Source: Candidatus Omnitrophota bacterium (GTDB lineage Bacteria > Omnitrophota > Gorgyraeia > Gygaellales > Profunditerraquicolaceae). From it: 64,000 bases of DNA. A program made the translations under genes and the position numbers. The stretch lies in assembly GCA_050012075.1 (NCBI GenBank), contig JBEKHW010000003.1:14690-78689 (forward strand). The letters are read 5' to 3'. Below are positions 311 to 40,906 of this stretch, piece by piece. The notes under the pieces are model-generated. The model made no database searches. It was not told the DNA's origin and was given only the letters and a program-made list of their open reading frames with translations. Positions within the stretch are counted from its first letter, which is position 1, and each line of letters starts with the position of its first letter.

Positions 311-1126
311 TTAGTATATTATCACCCCCGCGTAACCTACTACGCTTTCAGTGTCTCCTGTAGAGGAGCCGCTAGTCTCATATTTAACAAGAGTTGCGTT
401 TTTCGCGCCCAATAACTTTGCCGCTTTTAACATCGCCACTACCGGTGCCCAGCCGCACATGGATATATTCAGCTCCCGTATCTTTTTTATAAGCGTATCT
501 GCATCCAGTTGTAAGATTGCAGCGATTGCTTCTTTATCTTTAAATTCAGCTTCCGTTTGGCTTTCATAATGTGTCATATCGGAGCTGGCGACTATAAGAG
601 AATTTTCTTTTCTGTTTTCTAAACTATGCGCAATTGCCGTACCTATCTGGTTAAGCTCTTCTACATTCTCGGACATAAACGTTATCGGCACGATTTTAAA
701 ATCAGGTTTAAAATATTGCAGGAACGGTAATTCTACTTCCAGGGAATGTTCATATACATGCGCAAGGGGATCTTCTTTCAGGAGTTCAGAGCCCGCCAGT
801 ATTTCCTTTGCCAAAGGAGAATCTACGAGTATCTGGCCAAGGGGCGTCTCCCAGCTACCCTCGGTCATAATACTATAATCGCCACCATAACCGGTGTGGT
901 TCGGGCCAAGAAGGATGATACTGTCTTTTATTTTGATTGATGATACGGTCTGCCCTGCCACTCTTCCGGAATAAGTGTAGCCTGCGTGAGGTAAGATGCA
1001 TGCTATGGCATCTATCTTCTCGGCTTTTTCTTCAACAAGGCCTGCAATCTGTTTTTCCAGGGCTTGCCGGGGCCGCGGGTAAAACTGTCCGGCAACTGCC
1101 GGTTTTCTTACTATAGGGCTAACCAT
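311..1126 (-). CDS. AmmeMemoRadiSam system protein B (MEMO1-family)
   Basis: 271 aa. N-terminal AGQFYP motif, a His-rich LPHAGYTYSG segment and overall MEMO1 organisation. Confidence 0.8.
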   Translation of the reverse strand: MVSPIVRKPAVAGQFYPRPRQALEKQIAGLVEEKAEKIDAIACILPHAGYTYSGRVAGQTVSSIKIKDSIILLGPNHTGYGGDYSIMTEGSWETPLGQILVDSPLAKEILAGSELLKEDPLAHVYEHSLEVELPFLQYFKPDFKIVPITFMSENVEELNQIGTAIAHSLENRKENSLIVASSDMTHYESQTEAEFKDKEAIAAILQLDADTLIKKIRELNISMCGWAPVVAMLKAAKLLGAKNATLVKYETSGSSTGDTESVVGYAGVIIY

Positions 1127-2036
1127 TTAAGAGTCCTGAAATATACTTCGTTGCTTCTTTAATATCTCCTGCCGTAGCAGGTTGATGAATCTCCAGGATT
1201 TTTAATACTGCGCTATTCAGGTATTTTTTCAGGATACGAAAATCAAACTCGCCTTTTCCCGGAGCCTGGTGGTCCCTTCCTTTGGTTATATCGTGTAAAT
1301 GTATGCCAAGCATCGAGCTGCCGTATAAGTCCAGGTATTGCATGTGCCGCCAAAAACCCAGATTCTCCATAAGCTGGGCATGCCCTGTATCGTGCCAGTA
1401 GGATAAATTACCGCCTTTGAATTCTTTAAGAATTATCCCTATTTCTTCTATGGATGGTATCTCGCGGTGATAAAAGCGCGTTTCTATGCCAAGCCGCACG
1501 CCTTTTTTCCGGGCATAACTGTTCAGGATGTTTAGGCTGCGCAAGGTATTCTGGAAAAATGGCCCGGAGCTTACCTTACGCTCTTTTTGCATCGACGACT
1601 TTTGTGCCCTGAATTCCCCTGTGTCTTTAAGGCCGGCTTCGTAAAGCGCTATAAGAGCGCGTGTTTTATCGGGTATCTGGACCCTGCCACAGTGTAAGAC
1701 AACGGCTTTCGCGCCTAACAGCGCTGCCGTATCAATGGTTTTCCTGGTGTATTTTAAGGACAGGGCTCTTTCATCTTCATCCAGAGAACTCATGGCGTAA
1801 TAGTCAGGCAGGACAATATTCCTTTTAAGCCCTCTGGGTATAGGGCAGAAGTTATGGATACTTAGAATCCTGACCTCACCTTTTTTCTGCAATTTCGCAG
1901 CATCTGTTACCATTAAAGGGCTAAGGTTGAAGCCAAGCTCCACATCCCTAAAACCCAGCTTTTTTATCTCAAAGAGCATATCTTTTGCATTGTCGTGACG
2001 GAAGGCGTTCCAGGAGGTGGATAATGCAAAAGGCAT
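1119..2036 (-). CDS. Sugar phosphate isomerase/epimerase (xylose-isomerase-like TIM barrel)
   Basis: The track ORF 1119..2096 has TIM-barrel AP-endonuclease/xylose-isomerase-like motifs. The start is moved to the internal Met at 2036 because the upstream 60 nt encode the conserved rpsU C-terminus. Confidence 0.65.
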   Translation of the reverse strand: MPFALSTSWNAFRHDNAKDMLFEIKKLGFRDVELGFNLSPLMVTDAAKLQKKGEVRILSIHNFCPIPRGLKRNIVLPDYYAMSSLDEDERALSLKYTRKTIDTAALLGAKAVVLHCGRVQIPDKTRALIALYEAGLKDTGEFRAQKSSMQKERKVSSGPFFQNTLRSLNILNSYARKKGVRLGIETRFYHREIPSIEEIGIILKEFKGGNLSYWHDTGHAQLMENLGFWRHMQYLDLYGSSMLGIHLHDITKGRDHQAPGKGEFDFRILKKYLNSAVLKILEIHQPATAGDIKEATKYISGLLNG

Positions 2037-2040
2037 ATGT

Positions 2041-2217
2041 TTATCTTTTATTACCCCCCCGCGCTTTTTTTCTCCTACGTTCGCTGGGTTTTTCATAATG
2101 CTTGCGGTCTCTTACTTCCCGTAAGATGCCTTCCTGCTCAATCTTTTTCTTAAAACGCCTCAATGCCACTTCAAACGGCTCATCTCTTTTAACCTCTACT
2201 TCGGACAATAGTATCAT
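2041..2217 (-). CDS. rpsU: 30S ribosomal protein S21, 58 aa (below the ORF-track cutoff)
   Basis: Manual translation gives [58 protein letters not shown], which matches the S21 consensus (...NEPFDVALRRFKR...EVRRREFYEKP...). A perfect AAGGAG RBS sits 6 nt upstream of the ATG. Confidence 0.8.
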
Positions 2218-2290: not shown

Positions 2291-2378
2291 CCAAAGAAAC
2301 AGGGACGGTTCTCAATCTAATCGGAAAAGTGTCCCCGTAGCGGGGACACTTTTAGCTTTGATTTCAGAACCGTCCCTG
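2291..2378 (-). terminator. Compound hairpin terminator after tonB
   Basis: A perfect 12 bp inner palindrome AAAGTGTCCCCG-TAG-CGGGGACACTTT is nested in a roughly 14 bp outer inverted repeat (CAGGGACGGTTCTCA / TCAGAACCGTCCCTG). On the minus strand it is followed by a UUUCUUU run, immediately 3' of the tonB stop at 2381. Confidence 0.5.
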
Positions 2379-2380
2379 GA

Positions 2381-3091
2381 TTATTCTACTTCGAAGGTAA
2401 TGGCGACGTTAAAAGTAAGTTGGGGATAATCTAGCAACCCTTTGGGAAATTTGGGAAAAGGCGCGGCTTCTTTTATGCTATTTAGGGCGATTTGCCGCAG
2501 ATAGGCGCTAAAGGTTTTATTCTCCACAAGGTGCATACCTTTTACGTAGCCATCCTGCGATATCGAGAAAGAAATGATTATTTCCCCTGTCTCTGAGCCG
2601 GTATAATTCTGATAGGCCGCGCGTTTAATCTTTTCCCGCACAATCTGGTAGTAGCTTATGTAAGAAGGGTTGTTGATTTTATCGGCGTCGAGTAACGGCA
2701 GGGAAACCTTCTTTTTAATCCCGACCAGCCCCGTTTTGATAAGAGCCGGCTTATTAAAGATGATCTCCTGGTTCTTCATGCCTGCGCCAGGGCCGCTATT
2801 TTGGATAAATGGCGGAGGCGGCCTCATTGCGGCTACCGGAGTGACCCTGGAAGTATCTAAAAGAGGTTCCCTGGGAAGGGATGGCGGCCGGCTTAATGCG
2901 GGAGGCCGCATTTGCGCCTGCTGGCTAATTTCGATATCCTGAGGCAGTTTTTTTATATAACGGACCTCCAATTCCCGGGTTTTGGTAATTTTGTTAAAAA
3001 CAGAGCCGGAAACGATCTTATGGGTAAGGATAAATATATGCGCAAGCAGGGAAACCACCAGCGCCAGTTGTAATTCTCGCTCGATAACCAT
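2381..3091 (-). CDS. tonB: Energy transducer TonB-family protein
   Basis: An N-terminal TM anchor, a proline-rich spacer (RPPALSRPPSLP...RPPPP) and a TonB C-terminal domain, located downstream of a TonB-dependent receptor. Confidence 0.7.
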   Translation of the reverse strand: MVIERELQLALVVSLLAHIFILTHKIVSGSVFNKITKTRELEVRYIKKLPQDIEISQQAQMRPPALSRPPSLPREPLLDTSRVTPVAAMRPPPPFIQNSGPGAGMKNQEIIFNKPALIKTGLVGIKKKVSLPLLDADKINNPSYISYYQIVREKIKRAAYQNYTGSETGEIIISFSISQDGYVKGMHLVENKTFSAYLRQIALNSIKEAAPFPKFPKGLLDYPQLTFNVAITFEVE

Positions 3092-3114: not shown

Positions 3115-4968
3115 TTAAAATTCCACCTTTGCCCCGCCAGTAAAAGAAAATCCGGGCATTGGATAGTCATGTATGACCTGGTATTTCCGGTTTAAGAGGT
3201 TATCTATATAGGCAAAACAGGTAACTCCGTGGTTAAATTTCTTTGATACGCTAAGCCCCAGGACAAAGAAATCCTTTACTTTGATTGTATTTTTCGCGTC
3301 AGCGAATCTTATGCCGGTAAATTGCCCTTTAAGTTCAGCTGTTAGCCCGTTATGGTCGCTATATTTTAAAGAAGAGTCGATCTTATAGTTCGGCTGATAG
3401 ACAAGATATTTATGCGTATTCTCATCCTTGGCGATTAAATAACTATAGTCGATTTTTAAATCGAGATTATCGGCTATGGATACAGTATTCTCAAGCTCCA
3501 ATCCGTCGATTGCCGCAGTGTTGATATTCTCCGGTTGCGTCATCCCGGTGGATGCGTCATAAGACCATTGTATAAGCTCTTTATAATTGCTATGGTAATA
3601 AGTCAATCCCGAAGTAAGGTATTTGTTGATTATTATATCGGCCCCGACTTCTTCGGTTAACCCTTTTTCCGGTTTTAGATTAGAGTTTCCTTTTAAACCA
3701 TCTCCCATATCCGGCCAATACAGGTCGTTAAATGTAGGGACACGGAAAGAACGGCTGACCAGGCCGTGGAATTTAACCGCGTTATTGAATTTATAGAGGA
3801 GGCTTATGGCTGGATCGACCTCTGTCCCGAAGTTGGAGTAATCATCTATGCGCGCGCTTAAATTAATATTCAGCTTGTCATCCAGCATGCCTAAGCGGTT
3901 TTCAAGGTATCCGGAGCGCAGGCTGTATTCATGTTTTGCGGTAGACGTACTGTCATTTAAATTCTTTGCGTAATCAAAACCGTAAACAAGGCTGTAGTAT
4001 TCGGAAAGTTGATTGTCAAGCTGCAGGTTAAACCCTCGCACCGTAGTGGCATGGATATCTTTTTCATTAGCAGTTTCCCAGGGCAACTCTGCGTTATTTT
4101 CCATAAATTCCAGCCGGTTGTAATTCTGGTAAGCTTTGACCAGGATCCCCGTTTGTTCATTTGGTTTAAAGCTCCAGTTTAAATCAAAGAAACGCTCCAG
4201 GGTATTTTGCTTGTCGTCAGGATCGGGATAGGTTAGTGAGCCGGGTACGCCTACGCGGCTTGTATAAAAACCGGAGTTAAGGCTGATATTGTTTTGGCTG
4301 TTGAGCTCATATTCCAATTTGAGATTGGAATCTTTGGCATTTAGAGCTGAATTCTGCCGGAAACCCTCTGAACTTTGGTATCCACCGCTTAAAAGGTAAC
4401 CGAATTTTGAAACCTTAGCCCCATATGACATACGCTCAATATATGTGCGGGCAGTGCCGAAACTTGAATAAAGTTCTGCTTCCTGGCCGGAGATTGGCGG
4501 TTTTTTGGTAATGATATTTACCACTCCCCCCATTGCCGAGCTGCCATATAAGCTTGAACCAGGGCCATGCATCACCTCAACCTTGGCTATATTATCCAGG
4601 GGTATAGTGGATAGGTCTATCTCCCCGTCCCTAGGGTTATTTATCGGCCTGCCATCAATCAGGACCAGGACTTGAGCAGCGGTAGAGCCGCGCATCCTGA
4701 TTGTTTTTGTGGCACTGGGACCGCCGTAATCGCTTATATCAACGGACGTAAGGTCAGTAAGTGTATCAGCCAGGTTTTGCGTCCCGCTCTTCTCCATCTC
4801 CGTAGACGTAACTACATCCACGTTACGCGAGAGATTCCCAGGGTATTCTTCTACTCTTGAAGCCGTAACCACTATTTTATCCAGGTCAACATTTTCTGCC
4901 CTGACAATTCCCGGTAAAGCAAAAAGCAATAACCATAAAACAAGCGAATTTTTATTAATATTTTTCAT
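3115..4968 (-). CDS. btuB: TonB-dependent outer-membrane receptor, likely cobalamin transporter BtuB
   Basis: 617 aa with a signal peptide, a TonB box (DKIVVTASR), a plug domain, beta-barrel and a C-terminal aromatic residue. It is preceded by a cobalamin riboswitch and adjacent to the cob/btu operon. Confidence 0.8.
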   Translation of the reverse strand: MKNINKNSLVLWLLLFALPGIVRAENVDLDKIVVTASRVEEYPGNLSRNVDVVTSTEMEKSGTQNLADTLTDLTSVDISDYGGPSATKTIRMRGSTAAQVLVLIDGRPINNPRDGEIDLSTIPLDNIAKVEVMHGPGSSLYGSSAMGGVVNIITKKPPISGQEAELYSSFGTARTYIERMSYGAKVSKFGYLLSGGYQSSEGFRQNSALNAKDSNLKLEYELNSQNNISLNSGFYTSRVGVPGSLTYPDPDDKQNTLERFFDLNWSFKPNEQTGILVKAYQNYNRLEFMENNAELPWETANEKDIHATTVRGFNLQLDNQLSEYYSLVYGFDYAKNLNDSTSTAKHEYSLRSGYLENRLGMLDDKLNINLSARIDDYSNFGTEVDPAISLLYKFNNAVKFHGLVSRSFRVPTFNDLYWPDMGDGLKGNSNLKPEKGLTEEVGADIIINKYLTSGLTYYHSNYKELIQWSYDASTGMTQPENINTAAIDGLELENTVSIADNLDLKIDYSYLIAKDENTHKYLVYQPNYKIDSSLKYSDHNGLTAELKGQFTGIRFADAKNTIKVKDFFVLGLSVSKKFNHGVTCFAYIDNLLNRKYQVIHDYPMPGFSFTGGAKVEF

Positions 4969-4974
4969 TACAGT

Positions 4975-5120
4975 CCTTTCTCTCCCTGCGAGAGTACTTA
5001 CCTGCGATAGGCAATCGACCGGGCTAAGTTAATCGTTAGTATCTAAAGCTATCGATTAAACTATTACCGTTGCGGGGCAGCGTGAGAAATCCCATCTCCA
5101 CTTCCTTTGCCTATCCGGTT
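4975..5120 (-). promoter_or_regulatory. Cobalamin (AdoCbl) riboswitch in the btuB 5' leader
   Basis: The minus-strand RNA reads ...GAUAGGCAAAGGAAGUGGAGAUGGGAUUUCUCACGCUGCCCCGCAACGGUAAUAG...UUAGCCCGGUCGAUUGCCUAUC. This fits the cobalamin aptamer core (GGAA..GGUG.AA.UCC...GC.G.CCCGC.AC.GUnA) with a P1 pairing GAUAGGCAA/UUGCCUAUC. Confidence 0.65.
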
Positions 5121-5153
5121 TTCTCGTTGTAGAAAATTTCTGCCAGAAAGATT

Positions 5154-5828
5154 TTATGCGTATTTTTTAATATCTAAGAACCAATGCCTCCAGAAACTTT
5201 CCTTAATTACAGGTTCGGCCTCCAATATTTTAATCGGCCTCCTGAATATTGGCCCATCAACCACTAATGTATGGAACTCGCCTTTCTCCCCACAGGGACA
5301 GATACCTCTTTTTTTAAGTTCTTCGACTAAACTTTTATCGATATAGCGGCCAAGAAACTCCTTGCCCATTATGTCTGCCTTACAGCTGACAATAATGGCC
5401 TTAAATCCGGCACTTATGAACTCGTCAATAATATTATCCGGCGGTCTGTTCCAGAGCGGCTCCAGGGCTTTAATATTTAAATCGCCGCAGACGCGCTCAA
5501 TCCAGCTTTCGTGTTCCAACAGGTATATATCCCCGAAGACCATCGTTTGGATATCGCTACCTCTTAGTTCGGTAACTGCAGCTTTAAATTCTTCCTCATA
5601 TTTTTTCATGTCTGGGCTGACTTCTTTTTGCACGAGCGGTATGCCGATTAAATCCGCCTGAAACTTAAGTAGCTTTCCCTCGAGCCCATGAAAACAACCG
5701 CGTTTTGATTCGCGGGAAATAAAGTTTAAAAGCATCCTTACGTTATAGCCCTGCTGGATTGCCTTATAACAAGCCAGGCAACTATCTTTGCCTCCGCTCC
5801 AGGAAGATATCGCTCTAATACTATCCAT
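5154..5828 (-). CDS. PP-loop ATP pyrophosphatase, diphthine-ammonia ligase-like (MJ0570/DUF71 family)
   Basis: 224 aa with an SGGKDS PP-loop motif near the N-terminus. It overlaps the cobS stop by 8 nt, so it looks translationally coupled as the last gene of the cob operon. Confidence 0.7.
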   Translation of the reverse strand: MDSIRAISSWSGGKDSCLACYKAIQQGYNVRMLLNFISRESKRGCFHGLEGKLLKFQADLIGIPLVQKEVSPDMKKYEEEFKAAVTELRGSDIQTMVFGDIYLLEHESWIERVCGDLNIKALEPLWNRPPDNIIDEFISAGFKAIIVSCKADIMGKEFLGRYIDKSLVEELKKRGICPCGEKGEFHTLVVDGPIFRRPIKILEAEPVIKESFWRHWFLDIKKYA

Positions 5829-6573
5829 ATACTGCCCCCCTTTGATAAATACAAATAATGAATAAAGTAATGATTTCCGTCAATTCAATGGTAGCCCCCA
5901 GCGTATCTCCGGTTATCCCGCCAATTTTTCTGCTTATCAACTTGGAAAATAACCAGGCGGTAAAACCCGCGACAAGAAAAAGGAATAAGCCCTTTACCCG
6001 CCAGATTAAAACAGCAAAGATTAATGTAATAATCGTGGCCAGCAGAAATATCCTAAAGGTTATATTATTCATAAATATCTTTGCTTTACCTTCGCTACGG
6101 GCATAGGGGAAGAAAAACATCACCTCAACCAGCGACCAGCGGCTTAAGGTGCACACTAAGATTAAAACTATCGGTCTGTCCTGAGGCCGTAAAGAAAAAA
6201 TAAACGCTGCTTTCAATAACAGCGCGCATACTATACTGATGACTCCCATTACCCCGGCATGCGAATCACGCATAATCTCTAAGCGCTTCTCTTTGTTTTT
6301 TCCGCTCATCAACGCATCAAATGTATCGGATAGACCATCAAGGTGCATACCCCCTGTGATTACTGTCAGCGCTACAACTAAAATTACCGCTACCGTGAAC
6401 TCATAAAAATGCAGGTCAAATAACACAATGCCCAGGCCCGCCAAAATCAATCCGATCAATAACCCTACCAAAGGAAAATAGATAAGCGAATTAGCGAGCT
6501 TACGCTCATTAACATCACTGATTTTAAGCGGGAAAACAGTCAAAAACTGTATCGCCAGTAAAAGGCTTGTCAT
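5821..6573 (-). CDS. cobS: Adenosylcobinamide-GDP ribazoletransferase (cobalamin synthase)
   Basis: 250 aa polytopic membrane protein with CobS-family motifs (HLDGLSDTFDAL). Confidence 0.85.
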   Translation of the reverse strand: MTSLLLAIQFLTVFPLKISDVNERKLANSLIYFPLVGLLIGLILAGLGIVLFDLHFYEFTVAVILVVALTVITGGMHLDGLSDTFDALMSGKNKEKRLEIMRDSHAGVMGVISIVCALLLKAAFIFSLRPQDRPIVLILVCTLSRWSLVEVMFFFPYARSEGKAKIFMNNITFRIFLLATIITLIFAVLIWRVKGLFLFLVAGFTAWLFSKLISRKIGGITGDTLGATIELTEIITLFIICIYQRGAVYG

Positions 6574-7628
6574 TTTTTCTTCTCCGAGACATTTGCGCTT
6601 TGAAATGTAGCCATCTCGGTGAGTATTTTTATTGAGGCATCGGATAAGCTCATTGCTAACGCTGCCCCTGTTCCTTCACCAAGCCTTAAATCCAGGTCAA
6701 GCAGGGGTTTTAATCCAATATGTTCTAAGATATATTTATGCCCCTTCTCTACTGAGTTATGCGCGGCAATCATATAGTATTTTGATTTTGGCTCAATCTT
6801 AAAAGCAATCAAGGCAGCAGCAGTGGAAATAAAACCATCAATAACTACCGGGATTTTCTTGGATGCGGCAGCCAGGATTATCCCGGTTAATCCTGCAATT
6901 TCAAAACCGCCCACCTTGGATAAAACATCAATGGGGCTAGAAGGGTCAGGTTTATTTAAAGAGAGCGCCCTATTTATAATATCAATCTTATTTTTCAATC
7001 CTTTCTCGTCTATACCCGCACCTCTTCCGGTAACTTCTTCAACTGGTTTGCCGGTGATGCAGGCTGTTATTGCGCTGGCCGCAGTAGTATTACCTATCCC
7101 CATTTCACCAGTCCCTGCAATATCAATCTCGCGCCTGAATTCATCTTCAAATATCTCAATGCCGGCAGATATTGCCTTTATGGCTTCTTCCATTGTCATT
7201 GCCGACTCGTCAGCCATGTTTTTTGTACCGTAGTTTATTTTTTTAATCACCAGCTGTGGATGGGGTTTAAGGTCGCTTGAGACCCCCATATCAACAATGA
7301 CGACCCGCGCCCCAACATGTTTTGCCAAAACATTTATGCCTGCCCCACCGGAAAGAAAATTGTAGACCATCTGCGCAGTCACTTCTTTTGGATAAGCGCT
7401 GACGCCTTCAGCGGTAACCCCGTGGTCTGAAGCAAGGGTAAATATGACTTTATTGCGTAACAGTGGATTTTCTTTTCCGGTTATGCCGCAGATCTGCTTG
7501 GCCAATTCTTCCAGCCTTCCTAAGCTTCCGAGCGGCTTAGTTAAATGGTCAAGCCTATCCTGGGTTTTTGTTATAATTGCTTGATCTGGTATTGAAATGC
7601 CTGAGATTATGCGTTTTATTATTTCCAT
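6570..7628 (-). CDS. cobT: Nicotinate-nucleotide--dimethylbenzimidazole phosphoribosyltransferase
   Basis: 352 aa with CobT motifs (LGSLGRLEELA, SDHGV, MGIGNTT). Confidence 0.85.
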   Translation of the reverse strand: MEIIKRIISGISIPDQAIITKTQDRLDHLTKPLGSLGRLEELAKQICGITGKENPLLRNKVIFTLASDHGVTAEGVSAYPKEVTAQMVYNFLSGGAGINVLAKHVGARVVIVDMGVSSDLKPHPQLVIKKINYGTKNMADESAMTMEEAIKAISAGIEIFEDEFRREIDIAGTGEMGIGNTTAASAITACITGKPVEEVTGRGAGIDEKGLKNKIDIINRALSLNKPDPSSPIDVLSKVGGFEIAGLTGIILAAASKKIPVVIDGFISTAAALIAFKIEPKSKYYMIAAHNSVEKGHKYILEHIGLKPLLDLDLRLGEGTGAALAMSLSDASIKILTEMATFQSANVSEKKK

Positions 7629-7678
7629 TTTTCCCTTTCTAAGTAAGCAGTTTTACTTTGATGTAAGGATTCTGTTTC

Positions 7679-8194
7679 CTATTTTATTCTTAAGGGTATC
7701 CCCGATACCATAAAGAATACTTTCCTGGATTCTTTTGCCAGTATTTGATTTACCCTGCCGGCGATATCGCGAAAATCCCTACTCAGTTTATTATCCGGGA
7801 CTATCCCTAGGCCGACTTCATTAGAAACTAAGATTATCCTTGCTTTCTTTTTCTTCAACTGCCTAAGGACCGCGCAGATTTTATTTATAATCTCCTTTTC
7901 CTTATTCCCGCAGAGAATAAGGTTAGAAACTAAAAGAGTAATACAGTCAATGATGATGCATTCAGACTTATTCCCCATCCTGCTCAATATTTTTTCTACT
8001 TCTTTCGGCTCCTCAAAGGTTTTCCAACTCTTTGGCCGGGATATTTTATGTTTAAGAATACGCTCTTTCATTTCCTTATCCCGCCCCTGACAGGTGGCAA
8101 TAAAAGCCACTTTCTTATGCTTTTTAGCCAAGCCCACAGCATAAGTGCTCTTGCCGCTCCTTGCCCCTCCTAAAACCAGGATTATTTTACCCAT
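7679..8194 (-). CDS. cobU: Bifunctional adenosylcobinamide kinase / adenosylcobinamide-phosphate guanylyltransferase
   Basis: 171 aa with a P-loop GGARSGKS and CobU/CobP-family organisation. Confidence 0.85.
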   Translation of the reverse strand: MGKIILVLGGARSGKSTYAVGLAKKHKKVAFIATCQGRDKEMKERILKHKISRPKSWKTFEEPKEVEKILSRMGNKSECIIIDCITLLVSNLILCGNKEKEIINKICAVLRQLKKKKARIILVSNEVGLGIVPDNKLSRDFRDIAGRVNQILAKESRKVFFMVSGIPLRIK

Positions 8195-8214
8195 TTTTAC
8201 CTCGAATATTCTTT

Positions 8215-8808
8215 TTAGTCCTCAAGGGGACCCACCCCTGCTTTGATTTGAAAACCGTTCCTGGAATGGTTGACTATAGTTATTGTTCCCGCGGCGGGAA
8301 CATAGCGCCAGAAATTACAGCTTTTTAATATGCTGCTTAGGAAAATACCGATGACTCCTCCATGACAGACAATGGCAATCGTTTTTCCCGGGTTAACCCG
8401 CAGGATCTTTTTTATGGCAGAATTGACCCTTTTTTTAAATTCATCCATCTTTTCTGCCTTCGGTATGCGGTTAGAATAAGGGTTTTTCAACCATTCGCGG
8501 TAAATCTTCCCGTATTTTTTTATGATTTCTTCATGGTGCAACCCTTCCAGGACCCCGAAATTAATCTCCCTTAAGGCCTGTACTTTAGTAATCTTTCTTT
8601 TACAAAAGATTATGCGTGCGCTTTCGAGCGCCCGTTTTTTATTGCTTGAATAAAACCGGTCAATCTCGATTCCCTTGAGAAGCCGGCGCAATTTTCTTGC
8701 CTGTTCCCTGCCCTGCCGGCTTAATGGGATATCCCTGTGCCCGCAGTAGCGCCGCTGGATATTCCATTGCGTTATCCCGTGCCGTATCAATATTAAGCGT
8801 GTAGGCAT
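8215..8808 (-). CDS. cobC: Alpha-ribazole phosphatase (histidine phosphatase family)
   Basis: 197 aa with the RHG catalytic motif (LILIRHGITQWN), in cob operon context. Confidence 0.75.
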   Translation of the reverse strand: MPTRLILIRHGITQWNIQRRYCGHRDIPLSRQGREQARKLRRLLKGIEIDRFYSSNKKRALESARIIFCKRKITKVQALREINFGVLEGLHHEEIIKKYGKIYREWLKNPYSNRIPKAEKMDEFKKRVNSAIKKILRVNPGKTIAIVCHGGVIGIFLSSILKSCNFWRYVPAAGTITIVNHSRNGFQIKAGVGPLED

Positions 8809-9596
8809 TATTTTTCTCCAGGCACGAGCATTACATTTGGCTTTCCGGTAGCCCTGTTAGTATTTACGAGGACTACTGTTTTGTACACTGCTTCGATATT
8901 CTGATAGGTCAGGACTTCTTCGACATGGCCTTCCTTGAAGATTCGTCCTTTATCCAACAAGGCAATACGATTACAATAGGCGCCGGCTAAGTTAAGGTCA
9001 TGTAGGATCATGGCAATGGTCAGGTTCTTATCGTGGTTCAACCTTTTTAGCAGGTCCATGACCTGTATCTGGTGGCCGATGTCCAGATGGGAGGTTGGCT
9101 CATCCAGGAGCAATAATTCTGGTTCCTGGGCCAGGGCCTGGGCAATGGTTACCCGTTGGCGTTCACCCGCGCTTAATTCATTGATATGCCTGTTTTTGAG
9201 CCTTAAGGTATCGGTTAGCCGTAGCGCCTCTTCGGCAATCTCTATATCTTTTTTTGTCTCAAATTGCAGGCGTTTCAGGTGGGGTATCCTGCCCATAAGC
9301 GTAATCTCCATCACTGTAAAAGAGAAATCCGTGGCAATATCCTGGGAAACAAAAGCGACTTTACGGCAGAATTCCTTTAATTCCATGGCGAGGATATCTT
9401 GATTGCGAAAATAGACTTTTCCTGATGAGGGTTTTAGTATGCGTGTTGTCAGGCGCAGCAGCGTGGTTTTCCCTGAGCCGTTTGGCCCAATAATACCCAT
9501 AAAATCACCGGAAACCACATCAAGAGAGACATCTTTAATCACCTCTTCCTTATAATAGCCGCCTGCTAGATTCTCTATTTTAAGCAATATGCTCAC
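8808..9596 (-). CDS. btuD: ABC transporter ATP-binding protein (BtuD/FecE-like)
   Basis: Walker A GPNGSGKTT, an ABC signature LSAGERQRV and Walker B LLLLDEPTSHLD. Confidence 0.8.
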   Translation of the reverse strand: MSILLKIENLAGGYYKEEVIKDVSLDVVSGDFMGIIGPNGSGKTTLLRLTTRILKPSSGKVYFRNQDILAMELKEFCRKVAFVSQDIATDFSFTVMEITLMGRIPHLKRLQFETKKDIEIAEEALRLTDTLRLKNRHINELSAGERQRVTIAQALAQEPELLLLDEPTSHLDIGHQIQVMDLLKRLNHDKNLTIAMILHDLNLAGAYCNRIALLDKGRIFKEGHVEEVLTYQNIEAVYKTVVLVNTNRATGKPNVMLVPGEK

Positions 9597-10555
9597 GTGG
9601 CCTTCTTTTTTCGCTTAAGCAGGATAATAAATACAGGCGCCCCGATTATGGCAGTAATGACTCCGATAGGTATCTCTAAGGGGCCAAAAAACGTGCGCGA
9701 GATAAGGTCGCATCCAAGCATGAATATTGCCGCAGCCAGGCATGTTGTGGGAATGAGGATTTTATGGTTTGGCCCGACAATTGAGCGCATCATATGCGGC
9801 ACAATCAGCCCTACAAAGCCGATTATGCCGCAGATAGATATAAGGCTTGCAGTAATCAGGGCAGAAATGAGGATTAAGAGTTTTTTGATATTCTGTGTGT
9901 CTATCCCCAGATGTATCGCTTCTTCTTCACCCATGCTTATTGCGTTTAAATCCTGGGCAAAAAGATATATTACGAATATACCCAGGAGCACAGGTATGGC
10001 TACCAGTAACACCAGTTTATAATCATAAACCTGTAAGCTCCCCCACAGCCACCAGTTCATTTCATGCATAGCTTCATTGCCGAATAAGGAGACCAGGAAT
10101 ACGATGATCGAAGAAAATGCCACGGAGATGATTACACCGGAAAGAATCAGGGATTTGTCGCAGATTTTCTCATTCTCGCGCGAAAGATTATAGACGATGA
10201 GAATGCTCGCTACTGCTCCCAGGAAAGCTGCCAGCGGCATGTAGAGCCGGGAGATACCTAGGATTACCGCAATTACCGCCGCCAGGCCTGCGCCGCTGGA
10301 GGTGCCTAAAAGATACGGTTCAGCAAGAGGGTTCCTTAATATGGCCTGCAAAGCTATCCCGGCAACTGCCAAACCGCCTCCTGTCAGGATTGCAGCCAGG
10401 ATTCTAAGGAGCCGCATATTCAAGATAGGCTGGTTTTCCTTTAGAAAAAGATCAGCCACAGGAATATTTACTGTTCCTTTTATGGTTGCCAAAATCATGG
10501 CGGCACAAAGCAACAGAAACAGCACGAACAAGCTTCTTTTTAAATCCCTAATCAT
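9593..10555 (-). CDS. btuC: FecCD-family ABC permease (BtuC-like)
   Basis: 320 aa polytopic permease with FecCD/BtuC topology. It overlaps the neighbouring genes. Confidence 0.8.
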   Translation of the reverse strand: MIRDLKRSLFVLFLLLCAAMILATIKGTVNIPVADLFLKENQPILNMRLLRILAAILTGGGLAVAGIALQAILRNPLAEPYLLGTSSGAGLAAVIAVILGISRLYMPLAAFLGAVASILIVYNLSRENEKICDKSLILSGVIISVAFSSIIVFLVSLFGNEAMHEMNWWLWGSLQVYDYKLVLLVAIPVLLGIFVIYLFAQDLNAISMGEEEAIHLGIDTQNIKKLLILISALITASLISICGIIGFVGLIVPHMMRSIVGPNHKILIPTTCLAAAIFMLGCDLISRTFFGPLEIPIGVITAIIGAPVFIILLKRKKKAT

Positions 10556-11432
10556 TTTTAGGGTACAGCCTTTTGTAAATTTCTCGTAAGCCCTCGGTTA
10601 TCCTTGGCCCGGGCCTTAGCAAAATATCGGGGTTTATATCATTAAACACCCGTTTGTTCCTTACGGCATTGATATCCGACCAGCCGAAACGGCCGGCAAC
10701 CAGTTTCAACGGCATTTCTCTATCCATGTAAGCCAGTATGATGCAGTCCGGGTTAGCATTAACCACTTTTTCAGCGCTATAGTTACTGTATGGCCTAGTG
10801 AGGTCATACGCGATGTTTATGCCGCCTGCCAGGGTAATTAACTCGTCGATAAACGAACCTCTGCCTGCAGTCATCAGGGGGTCACGCCAGATTTCAACAA
10901 AAACTTTTGCTTTCTTGCCCTGCTGGATAGCACTTACCTTAGAAGTTACTGCTTTAATATCCCTTCTCATATTATCTATTAATACTGCGGCTTCCCTGGA
11001 TTTGCCGGTGATTCTTGCTATCTCGCTGATAGAATTAAGTAATTCCTCGATATTTGAAGGGTCAGAAACAAATACCTTTAATTTAAGCCGCCTTAATTCT
11101 CTTATAACCGGAGCCTGCTCCAGGCCGGTACAGAAGATGTAATCGGCCTTAAGGGATAGTATCTTTTCTATACTGGGATGGCTGAAATCCCCAACCCTTG
11201 GTTTATTTTTTACAGCCGGAGGGTAATTGCAATAGGAGCTTATTCCCACAATTTCTTCGTTTAGGCCTAATGCAAAAAGTATCTCTGTTGTTGAAGGCGC
11301 CAGGGAAATATATCTTGCTGCTGCCTGCGCCTTGCTTAAAAATAAAAGAATAAATACCGCGGTTAAGATTATTTTTTTCACAGGATAGCGCAAATAAAAA
11401 ACCCGCCACTTTTTCTGGCGGGTCGCACCCAA
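10548..11432 (-). CDS. btuF: Periplasmic cobalamin/siderophore-binding protein (BtuF-like)
   Basis: Class III substrate-binding protein with a signal peptide KKIILTAVFILLFLSKAQA. The true start may be the GTG at 11381. Confidence 0.75.
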   Translation of the reverse strand: MGATRQKKWRVFYLRYPVKKIILTAVFILLFLSKAQAAARYISLAPSTTEILFALGLNEEIVGISSYCNYPPAVKNKPRVGDFSHPSIEKILSLKADYIFCTGLEQAPVIRELRRLKLKVFVSDPSNIEELLNSISEIARITGKSREAAVLIDNMRRDIKAVTSKVSAIQQGKKAKVFVEIWRDPLMTAGRGSFIDELITLAGGINIAYDLTRPYSNYSAEKVVNANPDCIILAYMDREMPLKLVAGRFGWSDINAVRNKRVFNDINPDILLRPGPRITEGLREIYKRLYPKND

Positions 11433-11477
11433 ATATTTGCTTGGCCCTTTCCACGAGGCTTTTCATATAGGTAGGTC

Positions 11478-11660
11478 TTCTGGCTCAGGCTTTAACCTAC
11501 TTACTGCGTCTTCCCATCCCAAATTACCGGGACAGTGACTCTTGCAGCTTTCGTCTGCCTCTACAGCGGCGGGACCGCATCCGATTAACGGCTTTGGCTT
11601 ATCGGAAGCCAAACCATGGCCTACTGGCCAACGGATTTCCCTTAACCTATAATCCAAAAT
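11478..11660 (-). promoter_or_regulatory. Second cobalamin riboswitch, in the leader of the btuFCD-cob operon
   Basis: The minus-strand RNA reads GGUUAAGGGAAAUCCGUUGGCC...GCGGUCCCGCCGCUGUAGAGG...AGUCACUGUCCCGG. This gives the cobalamin core (GC.G.CCCGC..CUGUnA) and a B12-box-like GUCACUG. Confidence 0.55.
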
Positions 11661-11668
11661 GTCTTTTT

Positions 11669-11696
11669 ACTTTAACACTTTAAAAGGATTTGTCAA
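11669..11696 (-). promoter_or_regulatory. Putative sigma70 promoter upstream of riboswitch 2
   Basis: On the minus strand: TTGACA, a 16 nt spacer, then TAAAGT. Confidence 0.3.
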
Positions 11697-11799: not shown

Positions 11800-12300
11800 T
11801 CAGAATTCAATTCCCCTTCTTGCCTTTACGCCTTTCCTATAGTAATGTTTCCTTTCTTTTATTTCGCTTACGAGGTCTGCCATTTTTATGATCTGCGGAT
11901 GGGCATAGCGGCCGGTAAGAATAAGTTCCGCTCCCCGGTTTTCTTTGATGATACCCAGCAGTTCTCCTAAACTAAGGAGGTTAAGTTTGAGGGCGATATT
12001 GATTTCATCCAGGATAACCATGGCATATGTATTCTTTCGCAGGACTTGCCCTACTTTCTTTAAACCTTTTTTGGCGAGCATTATATCTTTAGGCGCAGGA
12101 GATTTCTTTATAAAACATCCTCTTCCAAACTGCTCGATTTTTATATTTTTTATTTTTCTTAACGCTTTTATCTCTCCGTAATCCCTACCTTTGGCAAACT
12201 GGGCAATGTAAACCTTAAGGCCGTTTCCTGCCGCCCTTAATGCAAGGCCGAATGCCGCCGTACTCTTTCCCTTGCCGTTACCGGTATATACCTGGATCAT
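11800..12300 (-). CDS. cobO: Cob(I)yrinic acid a,c-diamide adenosyltransferase
   Basis: P-loop YTGNGKGKSTAAFG and CobA/CobO/BtuR family organisation. The likely start is the internal Met MIQVYTG. Confidence 0.8.
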   Translation of the reverse strand: MIQVYTGNGKGKSTAAFGLALRAAGNGLKVYIAQFAKGRDYGEIKALRKIKNIKIEQFGRGCFIKKSPAPKDIMLAKKGLKKVGQVLRKNTYAMVILDEINIALKLNLLSLGELLGIIKENRGAELILTGRYAHPQIIKMADLVSEIKERKHYYRKGVKARRGIEF

Positions 12301-12944
12301 TTTTTCTCCTCCCACCCGAATTTACCTACGAGCGGAACGAATACGCAGCCGCAAATGCGGCGTGTTTGCAATTTACCTTCTTTTTTATCTATCACGGTAA
12401 GCACCTGGCTTAAGGTTTCGCCCAGGGGCACGACCATTTTTCCCATATCTTGAAGCTGTTCGGCAAGCGGCAAAGGGATGCGAGGGCTGGCAGCGGTGAT
12501 GATAATGCGGTCAAATGGCGCTTCTTCCGTCCAGCCGAGGGTGCCGTCTCCGACTTTTATTTTTACATCGTGATAACCGGCCGCATCCAACGCTATTTGC
12601 GCTTTTTTTGCGAGGGCCTCAAACCTCTCAATAGTATAAACTTTTCTCGCTAATTCTCGCAGGATCGCTGCCTGGTAACCAGAGCCGGTTCCGATTTCGA
12701 GCACCTTTTCTTTTCCGGTTAAGCCAAGGGACTCCGTCATAAGCGCGACCATATAGGGCTGAGAAATAGTTTGGCCTTCTCCGATAGGAATAGGATAATC
12801 GGCGTAGCTACTTTCCCGCCATTCTTGAGGGACAAACTTATGCCGCTCTACCTTGGAAAAAGCATCTATAACGCGCTTATCCTTTATACCCCTCAGGATA
12901 AGCTGCTCTTTTACCATCCGTTTTCTTAAGGTTTCGTAGTCCAT
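12297..12944 (-). CDS. pcm: Protein-L-isoaspartate O-methyltransferase
   Basis: 215 aa with a SAM-binding VLEIGTGSGYQAA motif and the TISQPYMVA motif. Confidence 0.85.
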   Translation of the reverse strand: MDYETLRKRMVKEQLILRGIKDKRVIDAFSKVERHKFVPQEWRESSYADYPIPIGEGQTISQPYMVALMTESLGLTGKEKVLEIGTGSGYQAAILRELARKVYTIERFEALAKKAQIALDAAGYHDVKIKVGDGTLGWTEEAPFDRIIITAASPRIPLPLAEQLQDMGKMVVPLGETLSQVLTVIDKKEGKLQTRRICGCVFVPLVGKFGWEEKK

Positions 12945-39648: not shown

Positions 39649-40209
39649 TTAATAAATTTCAAAGCTTAATTTAGCGTCCAGGCTATCCGTAATTTTCTTC
39701 AATGTCAGTAAAGAAATATTCTCTCTTCCTGATTCAATACGCGATATTACCTGTTGGGAAATTTTTAACCTTTTTGCCAGCTTGTTTTGGGTTAAGCCAT
39801 TTTGCACGCGCACAGCTTTAATCTTGTCCGCCACTAATTTGCAGAATTCGTTCTCCGGTCTTAACGCAAAATTATTTTTGGGGATAAGCAGGCCTTTAGC
39901 CTTGTGTTTTTCCCGCAATTTCTCGTATATGGCCTGCCAGAATTCAATTCTCGGGTCATTCCATGCATTTTTGCGCATTTGCCTCTTTATCGCATTCCAA
40001 TTATTCACAAAAATAGCGGGTTTTAGATAAACGTTAAAAACCTCTTTCGGGGAATTTTTCCTGGATAACAACAGGGATGCCAAAGATAAAAAATGGGCGT
40101 GTTTTGCGTCCTTTAATATTGCCTTGCTCATACGCAAGGAAATATTCCTGTCCCAAAGCCAATCGTTTTTAATATTAGCTTTCTGTAATCTTTTCGACAA
40201 TTTTATCAA
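39649..40209 (-). CDS. XRE-family HTH protein (candidate antitoxin/regulator partner of the upstream nucleotidyltransferase)
   Basis: C-terminal HTH NGLTQNKLAKRLKISQQVISRIESGR. The start overlaps the upstream gene by 35 nt, and an internal Met is possible. Confidence 0.55.
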   Translation of the reverse strand: MIKLSKRLQKANIKNDWLWDRNISLRMSKAILKDAKHAHFLSLASLLLSRKNSPKEVFNVYLKPAIFVNNWNAIKRQMRKNAWNDPRIEFWQAIYEKLREKHKAKGLLIPKNNFALRPENEFCKLVADKIKAVRVQNGLTQNKLAKRLKISQQVISRIESGRENISLLTLKKITDSLDAKLSFEIY

Positions 40210-40906
40210 CCTCTTTCTTAAAATGACGTTCTATTTCAGGGTAATTTATATCTTTTTTTATTTTTAGTTCCAGCAGGCCTGTTTTTACCTCGAAACGGCT
40301 ATATGTCCTGAACCACCTGATAATGGATTCGCGTATTAACTGATTGCCGTATCGAAAGGAAAAATCAGACAAGCGCATAAAAATCTGCGACAGGCAGTAT
40401 AAGTCATAAAAATCCTTTGCTTCCTGCCTGCCGCCTTCTGAAATCTTCCTGCCTATATAGTCAGTCGTTTGATGGGTGCCGGTAGCAGCATAAATTTTCC
40501 TCAGATAAATATCCTCTAAAGATAGAATATTAATCCCGTTAACCGATTTAAACGGTTTTATGCAATCCAGGTAGTCCTCAATAAAATCTATCTTTAAGGT
40601 ATCCTTTCTATCTATAACAAGGGAATAAACCAATATTTTTATCTTTCCTTTACGCGATTCCTCAGATATTAATTTAATTTTTCTATTTAAAGAAGCCGAA
40701 AGCGCCGTGATTATCTCTACTATCCTTTTTTTGCTGAAATCCTTTGTAAAGAAATCCAGGTCGAGCGATTCCCTGTGGTTAAAATAAAACAGAGAAAGCG
40801 CTGTTCCCCCGCCCAAATAGAAATCGTCAATTCTTCCAGTAAGGGCTTTTAATACCTTATTTTGCGCCTCTATAATTTTAGGTAGCATACCCAATATATA
40901 CAGCAT
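40175..40906 (-). CDS. Nucleotidyltransferase, AbiEii/AbiGii toxin family (DUF1814-like)
   Basis: LGGGTALSLFY...SLDLDFF minimal nucleotidyltransferase motif, 243 aa. Confidence 0.65.
   Translation of the reverse strand: MLYILGMLPKIIEAQNKVLKALTGRIDDFYLGGGTALSLFYFNHRESLDLDFFTKDFSKKRIVEIITALSASLNRKIKLISEESRKGKIKILVYSLVIDRKDTLKIDFIEDYLDCIKPFKSVNGINILSLEDIYLRKIYAATGTHQTTDYIGRKISEGGRQEAKDFYDLYCLSQIFMRLSDFSFRYGNQLIRESIIRWFRTYSRFEVKTGLLELKIKKDINYPEIERHFKKEVDKIVEKITES

Follow-up and report, generated by a model that had tools for sequence, protein, structure and literature searches.

A DUF71-B12 PP-loop ATPase gene in a riboswitch-controlled corrinoid salvage operon of an Omnitrophota bacterium

The window analysed here is a 64,000-nucleotide (nt) stretch of DNA from Candidatus Omnitrophota bacterium (GenBank assembly GCA_050012075.1, contig JBEKHW010000003.1, positions 14,690 to 78,689). 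Near one end, on the minus strand, it carries a run of vitamin B12 (cobalamin) genes in the order btuF-btuC-btuD-cobC-cobU-cobT-cobS-DUF71, followed by btuB and a tonB-like gene. A full-length cobalamin riboswitch, riboswitch 2, precedes btuF, and a divergent one, riboswitch 1, lies between DUF71 and btuB (Table 1). Our main subject is the DUF71 gene, which encodes a PP-loop ATPase of the DUF71-B12 subgroup, and the reaction that this protein may catalyze. Cobamide scavenging and remodelling shape which microbes grow in mixed communities, and DUF71-B12 is one of the few recurrent B12-salvage genes without an assigned reaction.

An operon for corrinoid uptake and nucleotide-loop assembly

Genes were called from the list of open reading frames (ORFs) together with Pfam and NCBIfam profile searches of the window's proteins. 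The calls bear out the order btuF to DUF71, the strand and the coordinates that an earlier sequence-only reading of the window had proposed, and also its claim that the last gene starts within the end of cobS, the overlap being 8 nt. Four genes, cobU, cobT, cobS and the upstream cobA, pass NCBIfam equivalog or subfamily cutoffs. The names btuF, btuC, btuD, btuB and cobC rest on family and context, because the B12-specific models score highest for these proteins yet fall below their cutoffs. Junctions within the operon are tight, with overlaps of 1-8 nt or gaps of at most 50 nt, and the spacer from DUF71 to btuB is 185 nt.

The same reading had described a complete set for cobinamide salvage and nucleotide-loop assembly. 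This holds once cobA, a btuR-type adenosyltransferase gene, is counted, but not without it, and cobA was absent from its gene list. The gene sits just upstream of riboswitch 2, outside riboswitch control. We looked for cbiB, cobD, cbiP, cbiZ and B12-dependent enzymes in the rest of the 64-kb window and found none; the remaining genes there are of lipid, secretion/pilus, signalling, ribosomal and tricarboxylic-acid-cycle types. The sequence-only reading had gone on from the lack of corrin-ring genes to an organism that scavenges B12; 64 kb of a contig of 89-95 kb do not support that step, and a survey of Omnitrophota reports cobalamin biosynthesis in some genomes but not universally (PMC10066038). 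We read the locus as a cobalamin-repressed operon for corrinoid uptake and nucleotide-loop assembly.

The enzyme set, the order of reactions from cobinamide to adenosylcobalamin and the riboswitch control of btuB resemble those of cobUST-cobC and btuB/btuFCD in Salmonella and E. coli (Escalante-Semerena 2007, J Bacteriol 189:4555, as cited in PMC3541065). Unlike in those systems, transport, loop assembly and the outer-membrane receptor are gathered here in one co-directional cluster, with two riboswitches and a DUF71-B12 gene.

Sequence and gene context place the PP-loop protein in the DUF71-B12 subgroup

In 2012, de Crécy-Lagard et al. (Biol Direct 7:32; PMC3541065) split the DUF71/COG2102 family into Dph6, the diphthine-ammonia ligase, and a second subgroup named DUF71-B12 (SEED subsystem 'Duf71-B12'), defined by the His-containing motif ENGE[F/Y]H. 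In their survey 75 of 102 DUF71-B12 genes adjoined B12 transporter genes and 18 of 102 adjoined cbiB, and they cautiously proposed that the protein is a pseudo-B12 amidohydrolase or has another role in pseudo-B12 salvage. In a review from 2016 its entry still reads 'function unknown, B12 salvage' (PMC5041015). The sequence-only reading had treated the PP-loop gene as unexpected and its family as not a recognised B12 enzyme. That claim did not hold up: both the subgroup and its clustering with btuFCD and cbiB were already in print, so the link to B12 salvage is a rediscovery.

A public protein 100% identical to the window protein is annotated as 'diphthine--ammonia ligase'. The translation of the window gene reads S11-G-G-K-D-S16 at the PP-loop and E181-K-G-E-F-H186-T at the signature motif. 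Aligned with the archaeal Dph6-type protein PF0828 (3RJZ), H186 stands opposite E188, so that GEGGEFET in PF0828 corresponds to GEKGEFHT here; the His thus replaces the catalytic Glu of the Dph6 motif EGG[E/D]xE188. Its score against the Dph6 equivalog TIGR03679, 157.2 bits, falls short of the cutoff of 197.3. The His form is general among its relatives: E-x-G-E-[F/Y]-H-T is present in 103/103 of the motif-bearing sequences among the 150 best 50%-cluster representatives, and the Dph6 form in none.

An AlphaFold2 model of the window protein (mean predicted local distance difference test score 96.6) superimposes on PH1257 and PF0828 with template-modelling scores of 0.84-0.87 at 28-30% identity, and its fold equals that of ATP-bound PF0828. 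Sequence and fold searches of the PDB returned only Dph6-type structures, with no DUF71-B12 structure and no clue to a ligand. Thus the protein shares with Dph6 (EC 6.3.1.14; PF0828 structures 3RJZ, 3RK0 and 3RK1, PH1257 structure 2D13) its fold and ATP-binding residues, and probably also the adenylation chemistry. It differs from Dph6 in having H186 for E188, in its sub-cutoff score, in its B12-salvage context and in its host, a bacterial Candidatus Omnitrophota metagenome-assembled genome that presumably has no diphthamide pathway, although no search for dph genes was made.

With the DUF71-B12 subgroup, by comparison, the protein shares the PF01902 domain, an intact SGGKDS, a His at the position of PF0828 E188, a bacterial host and the clustering of its gene with btuFCD and cob genes under B12 control; every subgroup feature that could be checked is present. 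It departs from the 2012 description in three ways. The second residue of its motif is K rather than N, the 2012 table does not list its host phylum, Omnitrophota, and its gene does not lie beside cbiB but is coupled to cobS, with an internal riboswitch and btuB after it. The first of these is a variable position: of 61 diverse members that we aligned, 24 have N at residue 182, 9 have K and the remainder have other residues. We therefore assign the window protein, on its sequence, to the DUF71-B12 subgroup and not to the diphthine-ammonia ligases. The label 'diphthine--ammonia ligase' on such bacterial genes is wrong.

The gene's start also ties it to the operon. The DUF71 ATG (5828-5826) overlaps the cobS TAG (5823-5821) within the 8-nt ATGGATAG, and a G-rich Shine-Dalgarno sequence, AAAGGGGGG, lies just upstream. 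DUF71 is thus predicted to be translationally coupled to cobS through this overlap.

DUF71-B12 genes adjoin B12 genes across phyla

We assembled a GTDB set of 80 loci from the species representatives with the closest homologues (37-85% identity) and searched these loci with the window's own proteins. The phyla covered include Omnitrophota, Chloroflexota, Nitrospirota, Desulfobacterota, Bacteroidota, Acidobacteriota, Bacillota and several archaea. In 41/80 loci a B12 gene on the strand of DUF71 lies no more than 300 nt away from it, and in 47/80 no more than 10 kb away. Because 41 loci have their B12 gene at 300 nt and only 6 more are gained by going out to 10 kb, and because the pathway has about a dozen genes, chance adjacency is excluded. 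The association with cob and btu genes in other genomes that the sequence-only reading had proposed as a check is therefore present.

The immediate neighbours of DUF71 in these loci are BtuF (13), CobU (9), BtuB (9), CobC (8), CobS (6) and CobT (4). Clustering of the neighbours that remained unexplained, with a Pfam scan, added cbiB (7 loci), a cobD-type aminotransferase (5), cbiP (4), radical-SAM/SPASM proteins (4) and Asn-synthase-like proteins (3). CbiZ was not among the recurrent neighbour families of the 80 loci. Among close Omnitrophota relatives the arrangement of the window is largely kept: cobS immediately precedes DUF71 in 61 of the 66 loci that could be evaluated, and btuB lies downstream of it in 49 of 62.

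These data bear on whether the gene is simply a passenger, that is, a true diphthine-ammonia-ligase-type enzyme or an unrelated PP-loop ATPase with no role in B12 metabolism. Besides its public annotation, what speaks for a passenger is that no B12 neighbour could be detected in about 40% of the homologue loci. However, bacteria lack diphthamide (PMC3541065), another residue stands in place of the Dph6 signature E188 and the score stays under the NCBIfam Dph6 cutoff. The 8-nt overlap would couple the gene to cobS, and both the synteny in 61/66 close relatives and the B12 adjacency in many phyla lie far above chance adjacency. We regard a passenger gene as very improbable.

A possible amide ligase of corrinoid salvage

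What reaction, then, might the protein contribute? In the scheme that we propose, scarcity of corrinoid would cause riboswitch 2 to let transcription pass its terminator into btuFCD-cobC-cobU-cobT-cobS-DUF71. The transcript would probably run on into btuB-tonB, where the internal, class-II-like aptamer 1 would gate translation of btuB through a hairpin beside the ribosome-binding site. Imported cobinamide or incomplete corrinoid would be adenosylated by CobA, whose gene stands outside riboswitch control, and activated by CobU; CobS would join the product to the alpha-ribazole-phosphate made by CobT, and CobC would dephosphorylate it. DUF71-B12 would bind ATP at its PP-loop and adenylate a carboxylate of the salvaged corrinoid, and the acyl-AMP would be resolved by ammonia, or possibly aminopropanol. 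The amide would thereby be formed or re-formed, making incompletely amidated or deamidated corrinoids usable.

We put the probability of the central step, in which a side-chain carboxylate of a corrinoid is adenylated and then converted to an amide by ammonia or possibly aminopropanol, at roughly 0.45. We prefer it to the alternatives below for four reasons: the ATP site is almost absolutely constrained, and a hydrolase would have no need of such constraint; Dph6, the only characterised relative, carries out this chemistry with free ammonia; amide-forming enzymes (cbiP, AsnB-like) adjoin DUF71 or are fused to it; and one Omnitrophica protein, described below, fuses DUF71 to a BtuF-like domain. 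The wider proposition, that DUF71-B12 proteins in general are ATP-dependent corrinoid-carboxylate amide ligases serving a re-amidation or repair step of salvage with free ammonia or aminopropanol, is more doubtful, and we offer it as a tentative extension.

The chief alternative is the one raised in 2012, that DUF71-B12 is an analogue of CbiZ, the adenosylcobinamide/pseudo-B12 amidohydrolase. Acting on pseudocobalamin or cobinamide, it would release adenosylcobyric acid by removing the nucleotide loop together with aminopropanol, or it would remodel pseudo-B12 in some other way, and the product would be rebuilt through CbiB and CobUTSC (PMC3541065). Both proteins adjoin corrinoid transporters and salvage genes, and they were proposed to be interchangeable because DUF71-B12 and CbiZ are strictly anti-correlated in bacteria and almost every genome that encodes CbiB has one of the two, with cbiB next to 18/102 of the genes (PMC3541065). 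Our loci add to this, in that cbiB lies less than 4 kb from DUF71 in 7/80 and cobD in 5/80, and no CbiZ family recurs among the neighbours; the change of E188 to His, moreover, suggests altered chemistry.

Yet hydrolysis of an amide needs no ATP, and the ATP site is almost invariant. In the alignment of 61 diverse members H186 and K14 are invariant (61/61), and S11 (59/61), G12 (59/61), G13 (60/61), D/E15 (60/61), H47 (59/61) and T/S187 (61/61) vary hardly at all. These residues, K14 among them and H186 apart, are those assigned to ATP binding in the 2012 paper (PMC3541065). Neither cbiB nor cobD stands beside DUF71 here or in most close relatives, which carry cobU, cobT, cobS and cobC, so a cobyric-acid product would depend on genes outside those seen. 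Nor does the protein resemble CbiZ in sequence or fold: PF01902 is its sole Pfam match and its structural neighbours are PP-loop ATPases, whereas CbiZ belongs to an unrelated family and hydrolyses its substrate independently of ATP, and the equivalence of the two is a hypothesis drawn from phyletic patterns only. A CbiZ-like hydrolase is, in our judgement, unlikely.

Gene fusions bear on the substrate. In one Omnitrophica protein (P0271, at L037:4962-6398) DUF71 is fused directly to a BtuF-like Peripla_BP_2 domain that lacks a signal peptide, and a normal, signal-peptide-bearing BtuF is encoded next. Because of this fusion, we take a corrinoid to be the probable substrate of DUF71-B12. In a second DUF71-BtuF-like fusion, from Elusimicrobiota (P0272), a hydrophobic segment lies where the two domains join, and this protein may be membrane-anchored or the product of read-through. 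There are also standalone BtuF-like proteins of about 262 amino acids without a signal peptide (for example P0274), 58-66% identical to the fused domain, and their lack of a signal peptide suggests that they are cytoplasmic corrinoid-binding partners.

Other neighbours and fusions point to amide formation. Asn-synthase-like domains that lack a glutaminase domain are encoded immediately upstream of DUF71-B12 in three loci (L037:3977-4927, L058:7997-8929 and L038), and one protein of 526 amino acids, P0285, joins an AsnB-like domain through a Zn-ribbon linker to DUF71.

Further partners were seen in passing. Radical-SAM/SPASM proteins recur in Omnitrophota DUF71 clusters (L009, L037, L050) and are also found in L057. 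DUF71 proteins of the His type are fused in P0221, P0238, P0225 and P0159 to PF04071 'zf-like' Cys-rich, Cys_rich_CWC, GNAT or thioredoxin-like domains.

The neighbours can also be read in favour of a salvage role away from the corrin carboxylates, either ATP activation of a lower-ligand base or nucleotide-loop precursor, or an adenylation tied to the uptake or trafficking of corrinoid delivered by BtuFCD. Transporter genes are the commonest immediate neighbours (BtuF in 13/80 loci, BtuB in 9/80), as they were for 75/102 genes in 2012 (PMC3541065). PP-loop enzymes that adenylate base carbonyls, namely GMP synthase, TilS, MnmA and QueC, are among the distant fold matches, and the fusions to small Cys-rich, GNAT and thioredoxin-like domains hint at varied partners. 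Set against this, no nucleotide-loop reaction is missing that the protein could fill, as CobT, CobS, CobC and CobU are all present; Dph6, the closest characterised relative, amidates a carboxylate; and the cbiP and AsnB-like neighbours point to amide chemistry. We consider a role of this kind about as improbable as the CbiZ-like one.

Several observations weigh against our preferred reading, that of a corrinoid amide ligase. In Dph6 the predicted catalytic residue is E188, the very one replaced by His here, which the 2012 authors took as a change of reaction, and the strict anti-correlation with CbiZ together with the co-occurrence with CbiB points to a hydrolytic, CbiZ-equivalent role (PMC3541065). 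The fusion evidence comes down to one clean case, P0271. About 40% of the GTDB loci have no B12 neighbour, some of them being short contigs, and in seven large loci of this kind no cobalamin riboswitch was found; the His-type family may for these reasons lack a single function. In the literature after 2012 we found citations of the 2012 paper and no biochemical or genetic characterisation of DUF71-B12. Finally, the single transcript in our scheme is one that we infer from sequence alone.

If DUF71-B12 is indeed a corrinoid amide ligase, scavengers could use deamidated or incompletely amidated corrinoids without CbiA or CbiP. It would be the first time that a PP-loop enzyme is placed in B12 metabolism, and the protein would supply a step that current salvage schemes lack; this new ATP-dependent step would change the prediction of salvage capacity from genomes. 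The link to B12 itself was published in 2012. To it this locus and its relatives add a compact, clean example from an uncultured phylum, a constraint on the ATP site that argues against a purely hydrolytic role, a DUF71::BtuF-like fusion that points to a corrinoid substrate, and a riboswitch embedded in the operon. What retains interest is the reaction of DUF71-B12 and, to a lesser degree, the divergent internal riboswitch.

Two cobalamin riboswitches, one of them divergent

Riboswitch 2 is a standard member of RF00174 (class I type): it scores above the gathering threshold and is followed by a terminator and then by btuF. At the orthologous positions in three relatives (L005, L006 and L007) RF00174 scores 76-88 bits. 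The hairpin after the aptamer is the candidate expression platform, and its form fits transcription attenuation. A sigma-70-like promoter lies just upstream of the aptamer; it is a pattern match only, and the regional total of such sites equals the shuffled expectation.

Riboswitch 1 is another matter. At Rfam gathering thresholds nothing is reported in the DUF71-btuB spacer, and the match to RF01482 appeared only in E-value mode. Thus, when both leaders were compared with Rfam, as the sequence-only reading had suggested, riboswitch 2 passed RF00174 and riboswitch 1 passed no gathering threshold. Two relatives (L005, L007) likewise show a sub-threshold match to RF01482, with relatives' scores of 36.8-37 bits, and in a more distant one (L032) RF00174 itself reaches 40.3 bits, above its threshold of 31.5, at the equivalent position.

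We then turned to covariation. From 80 metagenome loci (64-87% protein identity) and the GTDB loci we aligned 29 distinct DUF71-btuB spacers. RNAalifold finds 28 base pairs in this alignment, 18 of which show compensatory double changes. The share of paired cells is 94.9%, compared with 83.0% in column shuffles, and 0/500 shuffles reach the observed values; sliding the partners by 1-3 columns lowers the share to 28-46%. Because of the E-value match and the covariation in relatives, we accept riboswitch 1 despite its failure at the Rfam thresholds, and take it to be a real, divergent short aptamer with a putative corrinoid ligand. The claim of two cobalamin-responsive leaders is thereby upheld, for riboswitch 1 by covariation and for riboswitch 2 by RF00174.

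Riboswitch 1 resembles the short, class II type of clan CL00101 (RF01482/RF01689), with which it shares the core GGAAGU..., ...CCGC.AC.GU.A..., AG.CCGGUC and a P13-like hairpin on the side of the ribosome-binding site. Its invariant core (GGAAGU, GCAACGGUAA, CCGG) matches the conserved core of the RF01482 consensus. It differs from the clan in scoring 34-37 bits, below the gathering score of every family, and in its place inside an operon rather than at the 5' end of a transcript. In addition, riboswitch 1 and all 28 relatives, each of them sub-threshold, have an invariant GCAACGGUAA where the RF01482 consensus reads GCCACUGU. The GCAACGGUAA-type internal aptamer may be an Omnitrophota-type, lineage-specific variant of the cobalamin riboswitch that Rfam thresholds overlook.

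The P13-like hairpin, CUCUC GCAGG GAGAG, follows riboswitch 1 beside the btuB ribosome-binding site AAAGGA. Its arms co-vary across relatives (CUCUC/GAGAG, CUUUC/GAAAG, CCUUC/GAAGG, CCCUC/GAGGG), a pairing judged by eye, as the 3' arm is out of register in the MAFFT alignment. Short aptamers that act on translation typically have such a hairpin at the ribosome-binding site. A terminator scan found no T-run terminator after riboswitch 1. Because the hairpin is present and a terminator is not, riboswitch 1 probably controls btuB at the level of translation.

Two kinds of insertion were seen in relatives of riboswitch 1. Some of L088, L094, L108, L111, L132 and L006 have about 80-100 nt inserted in the variable hairpin, made of imperfect, CTAC/GTAG-rich inverted repeats that form a long stem, and others have a 20-nt GC hairpin inserted in a P4-like loop.

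An optional aptamer within a single predicted transcript

Scans found neither a terminator nor a consensus promoter between the DUF71 stop (5154) and riboswitch 1 (5132). Several relatives that have no aptamer 1 (L107, L116, L118 and L119) show a 4-nt overlap between btuB and the DUF71 stop, and in three further loci with no riboswitch between the genes (L009, L016 and L026) btuB starts at the DUF71 stop or overlaps it. The internal aptamer is therefore best described, from these comparisons, as an optional element, inserted at a junction where DUF71 and btuB are otherwise translationally coupled. The clean junction and the DUF71-btuB overlap in aptamer-less relatives favour a single transcript through tonB, and a transcript probably runs from the promoter of riboswitch 2 to tonB, with aptamer 1 gating btuB internally.

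In one of these relatives, L009, two DUF71 homologues (7663-8388 and 10251-10943) flank btuB, and a radical-SAM/SPASM gene lies between cobS and the first copy.

Table 1. Genes and regulatory features of the salvage locus. Positions are those of the window; bits are profile or covariance-model scores.
Feature	Position	Strand	Evidence
TonB-like protein, proline-rich linker and weak TonB C-terminal domain	2381..3091	-	PF03544 20.9 bits (below 24.6); TIGR01352 21.7 bits (below 27.1)
Palindromic hairpin, 13-bp stem, closing the btuB-tonB unit	2325..2353	.	terminator scan
btuB-like TonB-dependent outer-membrane receptor	3115..4968	-	Plug and TonB_dep_Rec_b-barrel; TIGR01779 (vitamin B12 receptor) 194.7 bits, far below cutoff 599.7; riboswitch 1 directly upstream
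Riboswitch 1, cobalamin-clan aptamer	4976..5132	-	RF01482 34.2 bits (below gathering score 50), E 0.006 in 24 kb
DUF71-B12 subgroup PP-loop ATPase, 224 amino acids	5154..5828	-	PF01902 199.7 bits, residues 5-223
cobS, adenosylcobinamide-GDP ribazoletransferase (cobamide synthase)	5821..6573	-	PF02654 195.1 bits; TIGR00317 148.5 bits (above cutoff 110)
cobT, nicotinate-nucleotide:dimethylbenzimidazole phosphoribosyltransferase	6570..7628	-	PF02277 462.5 bits; TIGR03160 463.4 bits (above cutoff 319.3)
cobU, adenosylcobinamide kinase / adenosylcobinamide-phosphate guanylyltransferase	7679..8194	-	PF02283 198.3 bits; NF004469 200.6 bits (above cutoff 161)
cobC-like alpha-ribazole-phosphate phosphatase, histidine phosphatase superfamily	8215..8808	-	PF00300 (His_Phos_1) 175.2 bits; TIGR03162 ribazole_cobC 139.2 bits (below cutoff 162.9)
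btuD-like ABC ATPase	8808..9596	-	PF00005 (ABC_tran) 113.3 bits; top NCBIfam model corrinoid ABC transporter ATPase, sub-cutoff
btuC-like ABC permease	9593..10555	-	PF01032 (FecCD) 292.3 bits; top NCBIfam model vitamin B12 permease BtuC, sub-cutoff
btuF-like periplasmic corrinoid-binding protein	10548..~11393	-	PF01497 (Peripla_BP_2) 109.6 bits; best NCBIfam BtuF model NF002894 111.5 bits (below cutoff 234)
Intrinsic-terminator hairpin, GACCCGCC...GGCGGGTT then TTTTATTT	11400..11424	-	terminator scan: 9 pairs, 6 G-C, T-run
Riboswitch 2, full-length cobalamin aptamer	11453..11665	-	RF00174 78.8 bits (gathering score 31.5), E 9.9e-18, model positions 1-189
Sigma-70-like promoter, TTGACA, 16-nt spacer, TAAAGT with TG extension	11669..11696	-	consensus scan, 10/12 matches
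cobA/btuR-type ATP:corrinoid adenosyltransferase	11800..12315	-	PF02572 204.8 bits; NF004637 190.1 bits (above cutoff 185)

Boundaries of the operon and neighbouring genes

The mechanically listed start of btuF is a TTG at 11432; the public gene call uses a TTG at 11393 (281 amino acids), and a GTG at 11381 is also possible. Since the TTG at 11432 lies upstream of the riboswitch 2 terminator, the true start is at or after about 11393, and the mechanical ORF 10548-11432 is btuF over-extended. Two other mechanical minus-strand ORFs (11203-11466 and 11463-11657) overlap riboswitch 2 and the terminator and are spurious. Upstream, the start of cobA overlaps the end of a protein-isoaspartate methyltransferase (PCMT) gene, an arrangement common to L005, L016 and L026.

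At the other end of the operon, the TonB-like gene is kept downstream of btuB in L006, L026 and L037. After the closing hairpin, a promoter scan finds a strong promoter-like site (2290-2262) that would serve the next unit, made up of rpsU, an AP_endonuc_2 gene and a Memo gene. The AP_endonuc_2 ORF (1119-2096, minus strand) encodes a xylose-isomerase-like TIM barrel whose best NCBIfam match is the cobamide-remodelling phosphodiesterase CbiR (NF041277). We rejected it as a CbiR-type remodelling enzyme, its score being 26 bits against a cutoff of 105. The ORF is cut off from tonB by the terminator hairpin, the promoter-like site and rpsU (~2041-2208), it is grouped with rpsU and the Memo gene (311-1126, AmmeMemoRadiSam-system protein B), and no homologue of it recurs near DUF71 among the 80 GTDB loci. 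This ORF is probably unrelated to B12.

Far from the operon, an AbiEii-type toxin gene and a helix-turn-helix antitoxin-like partner (39649-40906, minus strand) lie between fatty-acid synthase and amine-oxidase-like genes.

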